Shown here: positions 1,691-62,589 of the stretch, piece after piece
Position numbering within the stretch: the first letter of the stretch is position 1
Layout of the letters: each line of letters starts with the position of its first letter
Source of the DNA: a bacterium
GTDB taxonomy: Bacteria > Electryoneota > AABM5-125-24 > Hatepunaeales > Hatepunaeaceae
Reading direction: 5' to 3'
Length of the DNA stretch: 64,000 nucleotides
Assembly: GCA_021734165.1 (NCBI GenBank)
Contig: JAIPJL010000001.1
Location: 8,792 to 72,791, forward strand
Position numbers and translations under genes: made by a program
The notes under the pieces: model-generated
Databases searched by the model: none
Seen by the model: the letters and a program-made list of their open reading frames with translations, nothing else
What the model was told of the DNA's origin: nothing

Positions 1691-3013
1691 ATGTCAAACC
1701 AAAATATAGAAACAGTAACCATAACCGACTTCTCATCACAGGGCTTGGGAGTCGGGCGCAGATCCAGCGGACAGGTTGCAATGATCGCTTTCGCAGTCCC
1801 CGGCGATCAGGTCGAAGTTGACTTTGAATTTGCGAAATCCAAGGGGATCGCTTTCGGAAAGTTAGTCTCGATTGTCAGTCCATCGGAAGACAGAACCGCT
1901 CATCCATGTCCATATTATTCAGAAGGCTGTCGGGGATGTCTGCTGGGCGCTTATGATTACCAAAATGGTCTGATCTGGAAACGCAACCATCTGCAAAATA
2001 CCCTCGAACGCATCGGTAAAATAGAATCTCCGGAAGTCAGAGATGTTATTCCGTCACCTCTGGAGTGGACTTACAGAGACCGACTGGAATTTAATTTGCA
2101 AATTAAACAGGGCAGAATGCAAATCGGTTTCACGGGAGAAGATGGGATAATTCCGGTTAAATGTTGCAGTCTCGGTGTAAAAAGCATTCAGGACAGCCTG
2201 CAGAAGATGTGGAACGTTATGCCAATACTTAAATCGGGCGCTAAAAAAGATTTCAGAATGTTACTTCGAGACAACGGTTTAGGAAAAGCCGTTGCTGTAC
2301 TGTTTGTAGAGCCTGAATCAATTGACAAATATAGAATTATTACGCAATTGTTTGAAAACTCTGACCTTGCCGGATGGGAAATCAGACAAGTAGAGGATTT
2401 GAATTTCAGATTTTTCTCATCCAGACTAATCGAGAGGGTCGGTGAAGCCTCTATTTATGTCAATATCGGCAGGGATTCTATGGAGCTTCCTCTGCTATCT
2501 TTCACACAAACAAACACTTCCGCATCGGAACTCTTAAGGAAACTGGTAGTAGATTTAATCCCGGACGGACAAAACCTGCTCGATTTTTACGGTGGTTACG
2601 GCGCTTTTGCGTTAGAATATGTGACGCTGAAATCCGGTAAGGCTGTGGTGTTGGAAACCTCGCATCAGATGGTAAAAGCGGGACGCAAGTTTGCTGATAT
2701 TACTAAACTGCCGATTAGATACATCAGAACAGATCTTAACTATCCTGTAAGCATTAATAAATCGCACGGGCAATTTGATTATGCAATATTAGATCCACCG
2801 CGAGATGGACTGCATAAAAACGTGATCGGATATTTGAACGATGAAGGTCCGGGGCAGGTGATTTACGTTTCCTGTCATACAGCCGCGCTCGCGAGGGATT
2901 TGAAAGAATTGAAAAACTACACTCCGGAATATTTCATCCCTGTCGATATGTTTCCAAATACGTCGAGGTTGGAGACGGTTGCGGTCTTACGAAGAACTGT
3001 TTTACCGAGCTGA
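1691..3013 (+). CDS. 23S rRNA (uracil-C5)-methyltransferase, RlmD/RumA-like (TRAM domain, Fe-S cluster, class I SAM methyltransferase)
   Basis: The N-terminus has a TRAM-like barrel (GLGVGR..GQVAMIAFAVPGDQVEV). A four-Cys cluster (CPYYSEGCRGC) follows. The C-terminal methyltransferase core shows LLDFYGGYGAF and ILDPPRDGL. Confidence 0.8.
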   Translation: MSNQNIETVTITDFSSQGLGVGRRSSGQVAMIAFAVPGDQVEVDFEFAKSKGIAFGKLVSIVSPSEDRTAHPCPYYSEGCRGCLLGAYDYQNGLIWKRNHLQNTLERIGKIESPEVRDVIPSPLEWTYRDRLEFNLQIKQGRMQIGFTGEDGIIPVKCCSLGVKSIQDSLQKMWNVMPILKSGAKKDFRMLLRDNGLGKAVAVLFVEPESIDKYRIITQLFENSDLAGWEIRQVEDLNFRFFSSRLIERVGEASIYVNIGRDSMELPLLSFTQTNTSASELLRKLVVDLIPDGQNLLDFYGGYGAFALEYVTLKSGKAVVLETSHQMVKAGRKFADITKLPIRYIRTDLNYPVSINKSHGQFDYAILDPPRDGLHKNVIGYLNDEGPGQVIYVSCHTAALARDLKELKNYTPEYFIPVDMFPNTSRLETVAVLRRTVLPS

Positions 3014-31682: not shown

Positions 31683-31883
31683 CTATTCCATGTACTATGG
31701 TTAATCTAAACCTGAAAATCAGCTTTAGCAAGACACTTATTCAATAAATAATTACTATGTAGTACTAATCTGCTTCATCTGTTGTATCTGATTAGAAAAA
31801 ATCTTTCTAATTTATAACTATAATACAAAATCCATAGTTATAAATAATTAAATCCTGATAATCCTGTCTATCCTTGTTAAGCA

Positions 31884-31975
31884 TTCCGTCACGTTCCGTC
31901 ACATTTCCGTCACACCATCTAACCCATACCCAGTATGTCTTTCCGGCGATTCTGTGACGATGTGACGATAATTTT
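31884..31975 (+). repeat. Copy B of the GTCAC/GTGAC intergenic repeat family
   Basis: ttccgtcacgttccgtcacatttccgtcacaccatctaaccc - 28 bp - gtgacgatgtgacgataatttt. Confidence 0.55.
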
Positions 31976-32012
31976 GCCTACCCGGAATCTTTGTCGAAAA
32001 TTGCGTCGAGAT

Positions 32013-32041
32013 TTGACTTTTATAGAAAAATGTTGTATATT
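32013..32041 (+). promoter_or_regulatory. Near-consensus sigma70-like promoter (TTGACT-N17-TATATT), orphan on the + strand, followed by a possible short transcript ending at the hairpin at 32114-32133
   Basis: TTGACT at 32013-32018 and TATATT at 32036-32041 with a 17 nt spacer. No + strand ORF of 60 aa or more lies downstream. The stem-loop gacaagca-ttct-tgcttgtc lies about 75 nt further on. Confidence 0.35.
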
Positions 32042-32181
32042 GTCACTATGTCACATGACGAACTTTGCTCTTTAAATCACAGGCAGAGACGCCTACGCTA
32101 CGTTTATGGTTTTGACAAGCATTCTTGCTTGTCCTACTGTTAACAAACCCTTCTTTCTAACTTTCTTACTTGTTTCCTTTC

Positions 32182-42486: not shown

Positions 42487-43995
42487 ATGAGTCTCACAAT
42501 AAAACGAAACCACGCAATAGCAACCCTGCTGGCGTCGATTATCTTGCTTTTATGCAACTCATTGTATGCAAAAGAGTTGACCATCCTCTACTGGGGCGAC
42601 AGGTTTTCCCGTAATCTGCCTTATCAGGGAACAATTGATAATAACACTTATAAGTTTGGCGGCGCAGGGACACTTTCCGCAATGGTCAAAACAATAAAGA
42701 AAGATAACCTAAGCTGTCTGACGCTGGTTGCTGGAGGGGAGTTTTCCGGAGCGCCTATATCACCCCTTACAAATGGTGCTTCCCAGGTTGAAATATTGAA
42801 TGCCATTGGAATTAATGGTTTCGTGCCTGGCATACACGAGTTTGATTACGGCTGGGAATCGCTGCGAACAGTAATGAAAGAGGCGGATTTTCCCGTTTAT
42901 CTTGCGAATGTGATTGTGCGGGATAATTTTCAGCCGATGTTTGTTCCTGATACGATTATCTACTTACCGGGGATAATGGTAGGAATGTGCGGATTAATCG
43001 ATCCGGATTTTAAAAACTCACAGAATCTTGAGGGTGTGCTGGGGATTGAGGCTTCTGATGCAATAACAGAAGCGAGGGCATTTATCAAAAGAAGGCAGGC
43101 TGAATGTGATCTGATGATTGTTTTATCAAGTCTTGGCTGGAGTAATGATAGCCTTCTTGCAGCGAATGTGAACGGCATTGATGTTATCATCGGCAGCGGA
43201 AGCGACTATCCTTATGATCCACCCCGTAAGATTAATAATGTGATAATTGCCTGCGCCGGCTCGCTGGGACGATGGTTAGGCAGGCTTGCTCTTGATGTGG
43301 ATACTCTCGGCAACGGCGTGAATATGTACAGGAATGATATAATTTTATTAGATACTGCAACTGTACCGCCGGACGAAAAGGTTGACAAGTTGGCTCGGAA
43401 ATTAGAGAAAAAACACACTAAAATATTAGAGCGCGAGATCGGCAGGCTGCAGACCGATTGGAATCACGAGGTTAATAAACCGTGTAATCTTGCGCAGTGG
43501 ACAGCCGACGCTATGCGTACTTACATCATGGATGCTGTAACGTCAAGGGTGCATCTTTCGGTTGTGAACAACGGAAGTCTCCAGCGGGGGCAGCAGCGGG
43601 GGATATTGCTTGAGAGGGACATTTGGGAGATATGTCCTTACGATTATCCGATCATGATCTTTCAGTTGTCCGGCGAGGAACTGCTGAATATCGTAAAAAG
43701 GCAGATTAAATCCAAGGGTGAATTCCTGACCTGGAGTGGACTTCGGTTTAAAGTTTCAGGAAACAAGATTGAGGAGTTTTACGTCGGTCAGCAGAAAGTA
43801 TCACCTATGGACGAGTATTCGGTTGTATCGACTGGTTATATCTGGCAGCATTTTGAGGAGTATTTCGGTATCGAGCGCGGTGAAAGACCCTTATTTTATC
43901 CGCCGGACGCAAATCAGCGTAGTGTGATGATAAATGCAGTTGAAAAGCAGAAGATAATCACCGCGCCGTTAGACGATAGATGGGAGATAAAGTAG
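42487..43995 (+). CDS. 5'-nucleotidase / UDP-sugar hydrolase-family secreted protein (calcineurin-like phosphoesterase plus 5'-nucleotidase C-terminal domain), possibly with degenerate metal ligands
   Basis: Signal peptide. GIHEFDYG matches the GNHEFDYG motif. The N-terminal motif GDRF lacks the usual DxH histidine. Confidence 0.65.
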   Translation: MSLTIKRNHAIATLLASIILLLCNSLYAKELTILYWGDRFSRNLPYQGTIDNNTYKFGGAGTLSAMVKTIKKDNLSCLTLVAGGEFSGAPISPLTNGASQVEILNAIGINGFVPGIHEFDYGWESLRTVMKEADFPVYLANVIVRDNFQPMFVPDTIIYLPGIMVGMCGLIDPDFKNSQNLEGVLGIEASDAITEARAFIKRRQAECDLMIVLSSLGWSNDSLLAANVNGIDVIIGSGSDYPYDPPRKINNVIIACAGSLGRWLGRLALDVDTLGNGVNMYRNDIILLDTATVPPDEKVDKLARKLEKKHTKILEREIGRLQTDWNHEVNKPCNLAQWTADAMRTYIMDAVTSRVHLSVVNNGSLQRGQQRGILLERDIWEICPYDYPIMIFQLSGEELLNIVKRQIKSKGEFLTWSGLRFKVSGNKIEEFYVGQQKVSPMDEYSVVSTGYIWQHFEEYFGIERGERPLFYPPDANQRSVMINAVEKQKIITAPLDDRWEIK

Positions 43996-44015
43996 GACAA
44001 ACATTCCTGTTTGTC
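43996..44015. terminator. Stem-loop immediately after the 5'-nucleotidase-like gene stop, probably a terminator
   Basis: gacaaaca-ttcc-tgtttgtc is an 8 bp perfect stem. It is nearly identical to the hairpin at 32114-32133. Confidence 0.4.
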
Positions 44016-44245
44016 ATCTAACTTTGGGGAGCGCGATACTTGTCCGCCTCTGGCGGATTCTTACCGGCGAACCTTATTTGTTACTTACAACCCGAACAAT
44101 TAGTAAGTCCAACGTTGTCATCCCCTTGTAGAAGGGGATCCAGACAAGCCTGATTTGTTAGAGTGCTAAAACAATCGGCGAGTACACGACACCACTGATT
44201 TACCATTATCGGAGATGCTCCTGCAAAGGAAGGGCTATAAAAATA

Positions 44246-44382
44246 CCGTCACCTTTCGTCACATTTCCGTCACGCCATCTAACCCCTATCCGGCGGGACT
44301 TAACGGTGAATATGTGACGATGTGACGATAATTTTATATACACTTGGCGGCAATATACGATAATATGAGTCAAAATGCAACC
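44246..44382 (+). repeat. Copy C of the GTCAC/GTGAC intergenic repeat family, about 70 bp upstream of the polyprenyl synthetase gene
   Basis: accgtcacctttcgtcacatttccgtcacgccatctaacccc - 28 bp - gtgacgatgtgacgataattttata...ggcggcaatatac...aaaatgcaacc. It is collinear with the inverted copy A. Confidence 0.55.
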
Positions 44383-44452
44383 ATAAATGGTAAATACAAG
44401 AGGTTTGTAGAAAATAAACAACAACGACGTACTAACGCCTTTCATTGAGCCC

Positions 44453-45400
44453 GTGTCCGCCGAGTTTGACCGGTTTCGGGAGCAATATAAGCAAACGCTG
44501 ACCAGCGGACTGTTTGTCATCGACCGGGTGGTGTCATATCTCTGTCGTTCGCATGGCAAGGGACTCAGACCTGTTCTCGCTCTGCTCTGCGCAAGACTGG
44601 GTGATAATGGCGTCAGCGATTCGGCGATCAAAGCTGCGGTGATTGTTGAACTTCTTCATGAAGCGACTTTGGTGCATGATGATGTGGTGGATGAATCAGC
44701 ACAAAGACGCGGATTTCCGTCGTTGTCGTCGCGTTTCAAGAATAAAGTTTCGGTGCTGTTCGGTGATTACATGCTGGCAAGTGTGTTGAGCGAAACTCTT
44801 GAAGCGAGAGACTTGAAATGGCTGGATATACTGGCAGAGACTTCACGGAGGCTGGCAAAAGGCGAGCTGGTTCAGGCTGCAAGAGCTCGCAAGCTTGATA
44901 TGGACGAGACGGATTATTTGACTATGATAGGTGATAAAACGGCAGCCCTGTTCAACGCTTCCTGCCGGTTGGGTGGACTCACCGGAGGACTTGCCGATCC
45001 GCAGATAGCAGCGCTTGGAATTTACGGTGAGAATCTGGGGATCGCCTTCCAGATCAAGGATGATATGCTTGATCTGTTCGGGAATGGAGCCCGACTTGGT
45101 AAGCCAACAGGTGGTGATCTGAAAGAACGCAAGTTGACTTTACCGTTGTTGTCGGCGTTGTCGAAAGTCAATAAACGTGAAGCAAGACGCATAAAGGCTC
45201 GCATCAAAAGAGGCGTGAAACGCCCGGAAATAAAGATGATCACCAATTTCATTCAGGATAACGGCGGTGATGTTTACGCAACGGAAGTAATGAATAAACA
45301 TGCCTCAGAAGCTGTCCGGGCTTTGGAAGCGTTGCCGGAAACTCCGATCCGGACAAAGCTTGAAGAACTTGGTGAATTTGTGGTTAAGCGAGGAAAATAA
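44453..45400 (+). CDS. Polyprenyl diphosphate synthase (trans-IPPS, IspB/octaprenyl-PP synthase-like)
   Basis: The two aspartate-rich motifs LVHDDVVDES and FQIKDDMLD. Confidence 0.85.
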   Translation: MSAEFDRFREQYKQTLTSGLFVIDRVVSYLCRSHGKGLRPVLALLCARLGDNGVSDSAIKAAVIVELLHEATLVHDDVVDESAQRRGFPSLSSRFKNKVSVLFGDYMLASVLSETLEARDLKWLDILAETSRRLAKGELVQAARARKLDMDETDYLTMIGDKTAALFNASCRLGGLTGGLADPQIAALGIYGENLGIAFQIKDDMLDLFGNGARLGKPTGGDLKERKLTLPLLSALSKVNKREARRIKARIKRGVKRPEIKMITNFIQDNGGDVYATEVMNKHASEAVRALEALPETPIRTKLEELGEFVVKRGK

Positions 45401-50858: not shown

Positions 50859-51632
50859 ATGGAAAAATCGGAGTGTCTGGATTTTGATAAGATCGGCTAT
50901 CGTTATCCGGGTGGCAACAGGAATGTGTTGAGTGAAATCACATGTTCGCTTAACAGGAGTGAGATTACCGCTCTCGTTGGTCTGTCCGCATCAGGGAAAT
51001 CGACATTCGGGCGCATAATAAAGGGATTAATTGAGCCTGACAGAGGTTGCTGCAACTCTGTCAATTCTGATGGAGAACGCAACAAACTCCCTGCTGAGAA
51101 ACGTATGAAGATGATTGGTTGGACAGGAGCGCATCCCGAATTGCAGTTGTTTGCAGCCACTGTACAGGAAGAAGTTGGATTTGGTCCTGTAAATCTTGGT
51201 GTTAAAGGTAGAGATTTAGATCAACGGATTAATTGGGCATTAGAGAAGGTTGGTCTTGATCCGGAAGAATTCTTGAACCGTGATCCGTTCAGGCTGTCAG
51301 GTGGCGAGAAGAGAAGAATTGCATTGGCTGGAATAATTGCCATGCAAACCGATTATTATATATTCGATGAACCAACAGCCGGACTGGATGATGATGGTTT
51401 GGAAAGCTTTATTGATTTAATTAAATCGCTTAAAAATGACGGCTGCGGAATTCTTTGGATTACTCATAATATCAGTCAACTTGCAGGAATTGTCGATAGA
51501 CTCTGGTCTTTCGAAGATGGTGAATTGGTAATGAACATGGCGGAGAATCAGGTTGATTGGGAGGATTTGACTGAAAGACTTGTTTCAGGTAACGATAAAT
51601 GCAGTAGGACAAGTATTCTTGCTTGTCATTAA
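50859..51632 (+). CDS. ABC transporter ATP-binding protein, ECF-transporter EcfA-like
   Basis: Walker A is GLSASGKST. The signature is LSGGEKRR and Walker B is YIFDEPTAGLD. PELQLFAATVQEEVGFGPVNLG is an ECF-type Q-loop region. Confidence 0.75.
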   Translation: MEKSECLDFDKIGYRYPGGNRNVLSEITCSLNRSEITALVGLSASGKSTFGRIIKGLIEPDRGCCNSVNSDGERNKLPAEKRMKMIGWTGAHPELQLFAATVQEEVGFGPVNLGVKGRDLDQRINWALEKVGLDPEEFLNRDPFRLSGGEKRRIALAGIIAMQTDYYIFDEPTAGLDDDGLESFIDLIKSLKNDGCGILWITHNISQLAGIVDRLWSFEDGELVMNMAENQVDWEDLTERLVSGNDKCSRTSILACH

Positions 51633-60990: not shown

Positions 60991-61104
60991 GTGTTACTTT
61001 CTATTTTATTTTTTATCTACTTTTGTTTCATTAGGATAACATTCCTGTTTGTCAATGAACTTCACTTTCACGGTGAATTATAATCACAAGCAGGAATACT
61101 TGTT

Positions 61105-62589
61105 CTACTGCTTTTTGTTAGTTTCTATCCATTTTACAGCGTTTTCAAGTCGCCTGATTACCGTTTCTTTTCTCAGCACTTCCAGCATTTCAAATAATCC
61201 CGGACCTCCGGTTAGACCGGAACATGCCAGTCTTAAGGGATGTATCAACTTGCCTGCCGATACTTCCCATTCATCAGAGCGAGTCCTGATTACATTTTCA
61301 ATGGACTCAATATCGAAATTCTCAAGCAGGTTAAAATCATCTATCAAGACATTTAGTCTTTTAATTACATCATCATCATTAAAAAAGTGTTTTCTGGTGC
61401 CTTTCACATCATAGCTAACCGGATCTTTAAACATATAATTGCCATCGTTAAACAGGTCTTTTAGAAAATAAATCCTATTATGGAGTAAATTCCAGGCGTC
61501 TTCTATCTTTATACTATCAGGAATATAATCAATAATTCCGTTTTCAAAAGCCGATTCGGCATAAAGTTTGAGTTGTTCTGCATGATCGGCATAAGAAGCG
61601 TTACCGATGTATTGACCATTCAGCCAACGCAGTTTCTTTTCATCAAATACAGCGCCCTTAGATTGAATTCCTGATATATTAAATAAATCTATTAATTCCT
61701 GACGACAGATAAAATCGCGATCATCGCCGGGTGACCAGCCAAGCAACCCTATATAATTAATCATCGTTTCGACAAGATAACCTTCTTCATTGTATGATGT
61801 AATCGAAACAGCGCCGTGACGCTTAGACAGCCGTTTTTTATCAGGACCAAGTATTAATGGTAAGTGCGCAAATTCAGGATGCTTAAAACCAAGCGCTTTA
61901 TAAAGCAGTATCTGCTTTGGTGTATTAGAAATATGATCATCGCCGCGGATAATGTGAGAAATTTTCATGTCAGCGTCGTCAACCACTACTGCAAGCATGT
62001 AAGTTGGCGTACCGTTGCGTCTCAGCAGCACGAGGTCATCGATCTCCTGACAAGACACTTTAATTTCACCGTGTACGCCATCCGTGAAAGCGACTTCACC
62101 GTCCGGTATCTTGAGTCTTATTGCAAAGCTCTCATTGTTTGATAGTTTTGCTTCAATTTCTTCTGGTGAAAGCTTCAGACAATGTCGATCATACATGTAC
62201 ATTTTATTATCAACAGGCGCAGCTTCCCGGCGTTTAGCGATCTCCTCTGGAGTACAGAAACAACGATAAGCGCTGCCGTTCTCAAGGAGTTTGTTCGCAG
62301 CAGCAATATGATTATTTATTCTTTTACTCTGGAAAACAGGCTCTTCGTCAGGACTTATTCCAAGCCATTCGAGCCCATTTAAAATGACCTTGATTGCCTC
62401 TGGCGTCGAACGTTTTTCATCTGTATCTTCAATTCTAAGCAGGTAGTTACCACCGTAATGCTTAGCAAAAAAGTAATTAAACAGAGCGGTTCTGACGCCT
62501 CCCACATGAAGATCTCCGGTTGGGCTGGGAGCGAATCTAACCCTGACCTCACCCTGGCTTTTAAGCTTATTTGTTTTCAATTCTGCCAT
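61105..62589 (-). CDS. gltX: Glutamate--tRNA ligase
   Basis: Class I HIGH motif (PSPTGDLHVGG) and KMSKS motif (KLSKRHG). Confidence 0.95.
   Translation of the reverse strand: MAELKTNKLKSQGEVRVRFAPSPTGDLHVGGVRTALFNYFFAKHYGGNYLLRIEDTDEKRSTPEAIKVILNGLEWLGISPDEEPVFQSKRINNHIAAANKLLENGSAYRCFCTPEEIAKRREAAPVDNKMYMYDRHCLKLSPEEIEAKLSNNESFAIRLKIPDGEVAFTDGVHGEIKVSCQEIDDLVLLRRNGTPTYMLAVVVDDADMKISHIIRGDDHISNTPKQILLYKALGFKHPEFAHLPLILGPDKKRLSKRHGAVSITSYNEEGYLVETMINYIGLLGWSPGDDRDFICRQELIDLFNISGIQSKGAVFDEKKLRWLNGQYIGNASYADHAEQLKLYAESAFENGIIDYIPDSIKIEDAWNLLHNRIYFLKDLFNDGNYMFKDPVSYDVKGTRKHFFNDDDVIKRLNVLIDDFNLLENFDIESIENVIRTRSDEWEVSAGKLIHPLRLACSGLTGGPGLFEMLEVLRKETVIRRLENAVKWIETNKKQ

Follow-up and report, generated by a model that had tools for sequence, protein, structure and literature searches.

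A dispersed intergenic repeat in an Electryoneota genome with an iteron-like design and a possible kinship to phage replication origins

What kind of element places the same array of direct and inverted GTCAC sequences in three separate intergenic regions of one bacterial chromosome? The question is raised by a 64-kb window (the whole stretch analysed here, 64,000 nt of contig JAIPJL010000001.1 from a Hatepunaeaceae genome of the phylum Electryoneota), in which a first-pass annotation noted an uncharacterised repeat in three copies, A, B and C, and proposed that it supplies transcription-factor sites with a promoter, or a folded 5′ leader, to the genes beside it. The repeat belongs to a large and previously undescribed family of intergenic repeats in Calditrichota/Electryoneota-like bacteria of the Fibrobacterota-Chlorobiota-Bacteroidota (FCB) group. 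We tentatively favor the view that the window copies are orphan, origin-like modules for binding of a replication initiator, which spread as a dispersed repeat in the fashion of miniature inverted-repeat transposable elements (MITEs) or of REPINs (paired repetitive extragenic palindromes, REP) and which carry a portable promoter. The grounds for this view are the iteron design and its counterpart unit in a phage iteron cluster, the absence of a primase-helicase gene near the copies, their multicopy state, and their gain and loss. Below, H denotes the ~105-bp iteron-hairpin core and P a 29-bp promoter-like module. Positions were read directly from the window. The array strand is the one on which the direct CGTCAC units precede the inverted GTGACG pair (the top strand for copies B and C, the bottom strand for copy A), and the opposite strand is its complement.

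The three copies lie where the annotation had placed them, as seen in the sequence itself, in a three-way alignment and with a covariance model of 45 family members run over the window with filters off. The model (cmsearch) placed H of copy B at 31877-31982 on the minus strand (106 bits, E 1.4e-30), H of copy C at 44237-44342 on the minus strand (90.7 bits, E 8e-26) and H of copy A at 1328-1434 on the plus strand (88.7 bits, E 3e-25). The other strand of these three sites gave 24, 16 and 15 bits and everything else in the window at most 12.4 bits, so the window holds exactly three copies. Mean column identity of the three-way alignment is 73%; copies B and C are 82% identical across 98 nt, and A and C have an additional common block of 39 nt at 82%. 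The window has 16 matches to the heptamer CCGTCAC where 3.3 are expected, about five-fold over, and 7 of the 16 fall inside the three copies.

The direct and inverted arrangement is as the annotation described it, with tighter dimensions than the 10-12 bp and 27-28 bp it gave. In every copy three direct GTCAC-cored sites are spaced 10-11 bp apart, the last is followed by CTAACCC, then come exactly 28 nt, GTGACGA(A/T)GTGACG and an A/T-rich stretch, and the inner hexamers are 40 nt apart. The core unit therefore reads as three direct (T)TCCGTCAC sites one helical turn apart and two inverted units 8 bp apart. Three exact direct sites per copy is true of copy B only: TTCCGTCAC occurs exactly three times in B, twice in A and once in C, and the other sites differ by one base. 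On the top strand of copy B, CCGTCAC starts at 31886, 31896 and 31907, CTAACCC occupies 31919-31925, and the inverted pair spans 31954-31967 (GTGACG at 31954-31959 and 31962-31967). Copy C has its top-strand direct units at 44246-44252 (CCGTCAC), 44257-44262 (CGTCAC, as TCGTCAC from 44256) and 44267-44273 (CCGTCAC), and its inverted pair at 44314-44327 (GTGACG at 44314-44319 and 44322-44327). In copy A the top strand is the opposite strand and presents CGTCAC at 1343-1348 and 1351-1356, the 40-nt spacer, and then GTGACG at 1397-1402 and 1408-1413 and GTGACA at 1419-1424; on the bottom strand the latter three are the direct sites, and the inverted pair GTGACGA(A/T)GTGACG lies at 1343-1356.

How far does this geometry extend beyond the window? 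A scan of species-representative genomes for two direct and two inverted hexamers, with CGTCAC required, returned at least 101 loci. Among the matches listed, about 42 come from metagenome-assembled genomes (MAGs) of the FCB group labelled Calditrichaeota, 'uncultured bacterium' or Candidatus Hatepunaea (phylum Electryoneota), and these have exactly the geometry of the window copies; proteins of Calditrichaeota/Electryoneota-type groups are also the nearest matches of the proteins encoded in the window. At least 7 FCB-group genomes contribute the 45 copies of the family alignment, and one MAG yielded at least 14 copies. Of 43 copies, 38 have an inner spacer of 40 nt, though the spacer sequence differs among genomes, and the number of direct units varies over the family from 2 to 5. 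On the left the element fades into degenerate units, and on the right it ends about 30 nt past the promoter. A metagenome scan for the window's own subtype found just 3 loci. A parallel dispersed family with the CGTCAC hexamer is present in rumen and gut Bacteroidales, where it adjoins housekeeping genes. Rfam 15 gave no match to the window at the gathering threshold, and only chance matches to eukaryotic small nucleolar RNAs and microRNAs at E up to 10; in 18 related loci it recognised only a tRNA and an abiF RNA, both elsewhere than the element. We found no account of the family in Rfam or in the literature searched, including by motif, and the annotation was right to call it uncharacterised.

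The closest indication of what the array might do comes from phages and other mobile elements. The proposal of iteron-style binding sites gains considerably from at least 26 phage or mobile-element loci in which an array of direct and inverted hexamers adjoins a primase-helicase gene, in agreement with the organization reported in PMC9371898. Scanning viral contigs for the hexamer pattern gave 40 loci, against about 0.1 expected by our uniform-composition estimate. The array lies 6-7 nt past the stop codon of a D5_N/DUF5906/Pox_D5 primase-helicase gene in L079 and L115, 6 nt past that of a 747-aa protein in L085 (PHROG 'DNA primase/helicase'), and 35 nt past that of a related gene in L148. It starts within about 90 nt of the end of similarity to the 747-aa protein in L021, L051, L054, L058, L068, L072 and L144, a group with homologs of that protein in Actinomycetota, Proteobacteria and Armatimonadota. 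In 13 of 15 related low-GC phage contigs, namely those whose fetched stretch includes the primase gene, the array is 142-182 nt upstream of a BT4734-like_N/PriCT_1 primase whose nearest annotated relatives are Flavobacterium, Polaribacter and Bacteroides phage primases.

One phage contig, L136, comes closest to the window in sequence. It encodes a P4-family primase-like helicase, with Parabacteroides and Bacteroides phage primases as best annotated relatives, and a non-coding stretch of 350 nt in it contains the TTCCGTCAC/GTGACGGAA unit 15 times. One H copy there has a 25-nt arm, TCTGTGACGATGTGACGATAATTTT, that is identical to that of window copy B. Two related phages (helicases 66-72% identical) have 12-14 CGTCAC sites in the same intergenic region, with different flanking bases. 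In the origins of Staphylococcus aureus pathogenicity islands (SaPIs), penta- or hexanucleotide iterons directly downstream of rep are bound by the winged-helix domain of Rep, and half of them lie on each side of the centre, at least two per side and in opposed directions (PMC9371898). By analogy, the arrays in these mobile elements most plausibly represent their replication origin. A separate observation concerns a 126-aa protein, conserved between L124 (2294-2674) and 12 related phage contigs, that weakly resembles the C-terminal helix-turn-helix of DnaA; it is encoded directly upstream of the iteron cluster and primase gene and is a candidate iteron-binding protein. The actinobacterial matches near FtsK-like genes were set apart as repeat clusters of the kind found in actinomycete integrative and conjugative elements (AICEs), and they look like AICE-type transfer or replication loci. 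They include L037, L039, L047, L067, L070, L083 and L095 (Pseudonocardiaceae and relatives), where CCGTCACA/GTGACGG clusters stand beside a conserved ~780-aa gene that resembles FtsK-type conjugative transfer proteins by eye only, with gene order shared across the loci.

In chromosomes, the family behaves as a dispersed repeat that is gained and lost, unlike a gene-specific regulator, as judged from orthologous loci without copies, an orientation that is about half and half, unrelated neighbors and breaks in contigs. At the copy C locus, H is absent from the 520-nt intergenic region of a syntenic metagenomic contig with an 80%-identical 5′-nucleotidase, which keeps the gene order gyrA-rex-5′-nucleotidase-polyprenyl synthase. 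At the copy A locus, no H was found upstream of methyltransferase orthologs at 88%, 80% and 61% identity. The annotation had read a common orientation relative to a downstream gene from copies A and C and had named random orientation as the observation that would speak against it; across the family the orientation is approximately random, and by our tally elements downstream of a co-directional gene are about half in each orientation. The genes beside family copies are functionally unrelated, and the neighbors of the window copies are a KdsD-like gene, an RNA methyltransferase gene, type IX secretion system (T9SS) cargo genes, a 5′-nucleotidase gene and a polyprenyl synthase gene. Short-read (Logan) contigs of the source organism break inside copy C (the end of L105 corresponds to window position ~44379; also L106), as expected for an assembly-breaking repeat.

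These observations can be accommodated if an iteron-origin module of a phage or satellite was multiplied and scattered through the chromosome as orphan copies. A portable sigma70-type promoter in copies A and C would then read into the array from the strand opposite to the array strand, yielding at C a hairpin transcript of ~110 nt that ends in a U-run and at A an extended 5′ leader for the TRAM methyltransferase gene, and at B the inward promoter would have decayed and a second one would read outward. Protein binding, origin-like activity, transcription and mobility of the window copies, including the mode of spread, are what we infer for them. Several points weigh against the origin-derived interpretation. 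No primase or helicase homolog was found in the window (tblastn) or in any Calditrichota-type locus. The 40-nt central spacer is about 47% GC by our count, compared with about 41% for the window, and is C-rich on one strand. No terminal inverted repeats, target-site duplications or pairs of filled and empty alleles were found, the element-free orthologous loci being too diverged to define junctions, and the orthologous loci L028 and L086 (flanks 78-83% identical) both keep a copy in the same intergenic region; because this pair retains its copy, not all copies turn over fast. Part of the resemblance across phyla could be convergence, since the scans required the CGTCAC hexamer. In addition, nested covariation, strand asymmetry and the inward promoter, taken up below, point to a function at the level of RNA or of single strands. 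The possible answers are not fully exclusive, in that an origin-derived module could also be transcribed and terminate transcripts.

Does the element serve the genes next to it? The annotation held that copies A and C share a further ~70 bp. They do, and this segment contains a sigma70-type promoter-like module on the opposite strand, firing into the array and not toward the downstream gene. In copy A, P spans 1290-1318 on the plus strand (-35 TTGCAT at 1290-1295, a 17-nt spacer, -10 TATATT at 1313-1318), with a predicted transcription start site (TSS) at ~1325. No terminator-like site was seen downstream, and so the predicted transcript could run on into the TRAM/U5-methyltransferase gene (1691-3013), which would give that gene a leader of 366 nt. 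In copy C, which forms an inverted repeat with copy A, P spans 44352-44380 on the minus strand (-35 TTGCAT at 44380-44375, a 17-nt spacer, -10 TATATT at 44357-44352); from a predicted TSS at ~44345 a hairpin RNA of ~109 nt would extend to ~44237. The bottom strand there forms a 16-18-bp bulged hairpin followed by UAUUUUUAU (~44245-44237), with a predicted fold of -38.7 kcal/mol and a z score of -5.05. In copy B, the segment that aligns with P (31968-31997, minus strand) has poor hexamers, TCGACA-18-AATTAT, and is a weak promoter-like match that appears to have decayed. A second predicted promoter, P2 (32013-32054, plus strand; -35 TTGACT at 32013-32018, -10 TATATT at 32036-32041; 10 of 12 consensus positions), points outward to the 3′ end of a convergent gene, with a predicted TSS at ~32048 and two more GTCAC units 8 nt apart downstream (32042-32046 and 32050-32054).

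Within the family, P accompanies H in two fixed arrangements. In type 1, P fires away from H, as in window copy B, 12 of 13 CAYLYZ copies, some JABGPL copies and L104; the distance is 45-47 nt in copy B and most CAYLYZ carriers and 65-84 nt in four CAYLYZ copies. In type 2, P is directed into H from a distance of 23-25 nt, as in window copies A and C, 4 of 6 Hatepunaea copies and, by eye, L102; here the hexamers and the 17-nt spacing are conserved and the spacer sequence is variable. The CAZAGU and CAZVKN copies are mostly H alone, without a promoter. Predicted promoters of the organism itself resemble P, an example being that of the kdsD-like gene (TTGACT-17-TATATT at 1212-1184), and elsewhere in the window P has one weak match only. 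A promoter, transcription-factor site or 5′ leader serving the kdsD-like and polyprenyl synthase genes thus finds little room: the sole conserved promoter-like module lies on the opposite strand and points away from these genes into the array, the kdsD-like gene has a predicted promoter of its own, relatives keep the genes without the element, and orientation across the family is close to random. An invertible switch between the two arrangements was considered and rejected, as inverting the segment of copy B does not yield the layout of A and C and the distances differ; a small open reading frame (ORF) after the outward promoter was rejected for want of a conserved start codon or frame. Two features were noted at these sites in passing. 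In copies A and C, GCCGCC or GGCGGC directly follows the -10 of P, at the place expected for a discriminator. Beside copy C, the polyprenyl synthase frame continues without a stop, and with conservation in the relative L107, over 44411-44452, ahead of the first canonical start codon (GTG at 44453); this stretch contains no ATG, GTG or TTG, which suggests a non-canonical start codon or a mis-set start.

Could the element act as RNA? The CGUCAC/GUGACG stems that the annotation envisaged are borne out by covariation at the positions that flank the hexamers; the hexamers themselves are uninformative, because the search required them and they are therefore invariant. The pair flanking the last direct unit and the inner inverted unit is AU in 27 copies and CG in 10, with 8 mismatches, and the pair flanking the second-last direct unit and the outer inverted unit is AU in 19, UA in 6 and UG in 1, with 17 mismatches. 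Changes on both sides occupy 37 cells, compared with 22 in shuffles, and none of 500 shuffles reached 37; pairing cells make up 82.8%, compared with 28-56% in slid controls. This is moderate evidence only, since the copies are kin to one another. At 12 variable pairs, 65.8% are standard pairs on the opposite strand compared with 36.6% on the array strand, and in 43 of 45 copies the opposite strand (the bottom strand for copy C) has the lower minimum free energy; a composition rich in G and U contributes to the better pairing score of that strand. No covarying or conserved pairs are predicted within the 36-nt apical region, and a region of constant length whose sequence varies is easier to reconcile with a protein-DNA architecture than with a loop in RNA.

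The main alternative, which we regard as unlikely, is that the copies are small RNA (sRNA) genes or RNA elements read from the opposite strand. A sigma70 promoter 23-25 nt upstream would produce a transcript of ~110 nt that consists of a short leader, the bulged helix (16-18 bp), a G-rich apical region of 36 nt and, at its 3′ end, a tail of GUGACGGAA repeats. Its role might be that of a regulatory sRNA or of a sponge for some RNA-binding protein, or it might base-pair with other transcripts that contain UUCCGUCAC repeats. The inward promoter with conserved hexamers in all type 2 copies (those of the window and Hatepunaea, and L102 by eye), the nested covariation, and G·U pairs that are workable on the opposite strand alone, where the free energy is also the lower, are all consistent with this, and multicopy sRNA families such as FopS are known in the FCB group (PMC11697453). 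However, most copies elsewhere have no promoter facing the array (the promoter points away in 12 of 13 CAYLYZ copies and is mostly missing in CAZAGU and CAZVKN), and within the window only copy C combines promoter, hairpin and U-run, copy A having the promoter only and copy B a decayed inward one. The U-run behind the hairpin, an argument for an sRNA at copy C, is confined to that copy. The apical region, of fixed length and without covarying pairs, would be unusual for a loop; strand composition inflates the pairing score; orthologous loci do not conserve the copies; and in mobile elements arrays also lie 3′ of primase-helicase ORFs, where a role as leader RNA is unlikely. A CsrA-type sponge, with ACGGA as the ANGGA motif, was ruled out, as the CAZVKN and Bacteroidales units are without GGA.

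Less probable still is that the elements are protein-independent hairpins of the REP, BOX or terminator kind, which insulate or end transcripts or stabilize mRNA 3′ ends and are maintained by hairpin-templated conversion, their likeness to phage iterons being coincidental. Position gives this idea some appeal, in that the elements occupy intergenic DNA and are frequently found at the 3′ ends of genes; for 6 of the 8 CAZAGU copies, H starts 11-79 nt past the stop codon of a gene read in the same direction, and these genes are functionally unrelated. Many copies have a U-tract after the inverted pair (ATAATTTT, ATTTTTCC), copy C resembles a bidirectional terminator between convergent units, and the build is modular with a variable number of tandem units. 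Yet an A-tract replaces the U-tract in CAZVKN and some Hatepunaea copies, a 40-nt loop and a spacer of fixed length are atypical of terminators, and no overall orientation bias exists. The identity of the unit and of the 25-nt arm to those of the phage iteron cluster is also hard to call chance. Furthermore, gene ends in the window are already occupied by a separate REP-like family unrelated to H, composed of a GTAG head and a compact hairpin (GTAGGACAARNATTCYTGYTTGTC). Its sites are at 43992-44015 (+), 51604-51627 (+), 61085-61108 (-) and 32113-32139 (-), with 3 matches at up to 2 mismatches against 0 expected; it recurs in L107 (2575-2600 and 2845-2870), the 80%-identical relative without copy C, and suggests that the lineage has a system of the REP-associated tyrosine transposase (RAYT) type. 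The CAZAGU copies provide two observations of their own. A specific tie to T9SS cargo genes was rejected, as the genes directly upstream are of mixed function, and in loci L002, L015, L033 and L040 the upstream ORFs end within the G-rich flank of the element (GGGGTGGGGTGAGG or TAG), so that the repeat appears to provide the stop codon of several unrelated genes.

We consider it improbable, to a slightly greater degree, that the chromosome carries dozens of copies which serve as decoy or hitch-hiker origins for P4/D5-type primase-helicases, or in an RNA-level variant confer immunity of the P4 CI kind. As decoys, orphan arrays would bind the initiator of a cognate phage or satellite, and its titration would amount to defence by origin mimicry. 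As hitch-hikers, the arrays would fire and over-replicate flanking host DNA, which would then be packaged. In the RNA variant, the GUGACGGAA tails of hairpin RNAs from promoter-bearing copies would pair with UUCCGUCAC repeats in the transcript of a phage replication region. Least likely of all is the proposal of the annotation itself that the copies form the regulon of a host transcription factor, with the array as an operator controlling the adjacent promoter module: direct repeats at helical-turn spacing and a module that never changes sides relative to the array, keeps to fixed distances of 23-25 or 45-47 nt and is nearly absent from the rest of the window would fit such a regulon, whereas about one outward promoter in two is directed at the 3′ end of a convergent gene, neighboring genes are functionally unrelated, orthologous loci are without elements, CAZAGU and CAZVKN copies are mostly promoterless, and similarity spans the whole element beyond the motifs, indicating duplication and not convergent binding sites.

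Some further features of the arrays were recorded independently of these alternatives. A DnaA-box-like nonamer, TTATCCACA (family consensus yyAyCCACA), occupies spacer positions 12-20 of H in several genomes; it is perfect in L033 and L052, has one mismatch in L002 and L062, recurs in many other loci, and is poor in the window copies, with 3-4 mismatches. A GC-rich motif of alternating purines and pyrimidines (CGCGCGCG-like) is found 20-35 nt past the inverted pair in L102, L136 (3905-3925), L126, L132, L004, L010, L009 and others, in phage, mobile-element and dispersed copies across phyla; the GCCGCC or GGCGGC of window copies A and C stands at the corresponding position. In the Bacteroidaceae MAG RGIG6733 (L009 560-1460; L019, L031, L038 and L098), H-like CGTCAC arrays form convergent pairs 87-761 nt apart whose outward ends are TCGTGCCCGCGCGCGAG, flanked by three AATTTATCA repeats, with housekeeping genes as neighbors; 22-nt tandem repeats occur at L009 560-650, and the paired structure could be a foldback element or an inverton. 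About 1.3 kb separates the abiF RNA of L065 (6410-6446; RF03085, 46.5 bits) from an H-like array of Prevotella. An integron attC site was ruled out by inspection, as the boxes are direct and not inverted repeats and have no GTTRRRY core.

If the window copies are indeed orphan, origin-like modules, then phages or satellites are the source of a replication-origin module that has become, by amplification, a family of dispersed repeats in the chromosomes of a little-studied lineage, and the family bridges intergenic repeats of the REP, MITE and BOX kind and the recognition of iterons by initiators in mobile elements. The arrays would offer testable sites for how primase-helicase initiators of FCB-group phages select DNA. 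Because the elements carry what are predicted to be strong promoters and long hairpins, they probably rewire transcription where they insert, for instance through a leader for the (rRNA/tRNA) methyltransferase gene at copy A and, at copy C, through an arrangement of the antisense or terminator kind. A further consequence is that short-read assemblies break at them.

Comparison with known systems places the family between two groups. As in the origins of SaPIs and other phage-inducible chromosomal islands (PICIs) and of P4/D5-type elements, the iterons of the window copies are hexanucleotides with at least two on each side of a centre in opposed directions (three direct and two inverted). The P4 type I iteron, TGTTCACC, would share the TCAC core. 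The array directly adjoins a primase-helicase ORF, as it does in these origins, in the related mobile elements and not in the window. Unlike in SaPI origins, the spacer of the window copies is not AT-rich, although some mobile-element arrays, such as that of L079, are AT-rich. Also unlike these origins, the window copies have no nearby rep or primase gene, are multicopy and are scattered among housekeeping genes, and their asymmetry of three versus two units, at spacings of 10-11 versus 8 bp, produces a bulged hairpin. With neither an adjacent rep gene nor an AT-rich centre, the window copies fall short of the definition of a functional origin.

In genomic behavior the family is closer to other repeats. 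REP elements, REPINs and MITEs such as the Correia elements of Neisseria are short, non-coding, high-copy and intergenic, have hairpin potential with compensatory changes, vary in presence or absence between relatives, and can carry promoters and affect their neighbors, and the family resembles them in these traits. The window copies differ from REP elements and REPINs in having no GTAG head, and no RAYT or transposase partner was identified; unlike REP elements, the family has internal tandem iterons. A possible RAYT neighbor in the Prevotellaceae locus L003, with a HUH-like motif seen by eye and no Pfam match, was set aside. The pneumococcal BOX elements (boxA-boxB(n)-boxC) place a variable number of tandem sub-units between complementary parts, are intergenic and have no known mobilising enzyme. 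A modular and dispersed build is common to BOX and the present family, which differs in belonging to another phylum and in having no sequence similarity to BOX; we know of no counterpart of BOX beside phage replication genes. FopS elements are multicopy, promoter-bearing small transcription units in Bacteroides, for which phage-mediated spread has been suggested as a possibility (PMC11697453). The FopS model in Rfam matched neither the window nor the related loci, and identity with FopS was rejected; the likeness is that of a multicopy, promoter-bearing element of the FCB group, and the difference is that FopS has a single-stranded seed and a compact terminator instead of a hairpin of iterated hexamers. 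In sum, the iteron origins of SaPI/PICI and P4/D5 elements are the closest known systems by design, and REPINs, MITEs and BOX elements are the closest by genomic behavior.

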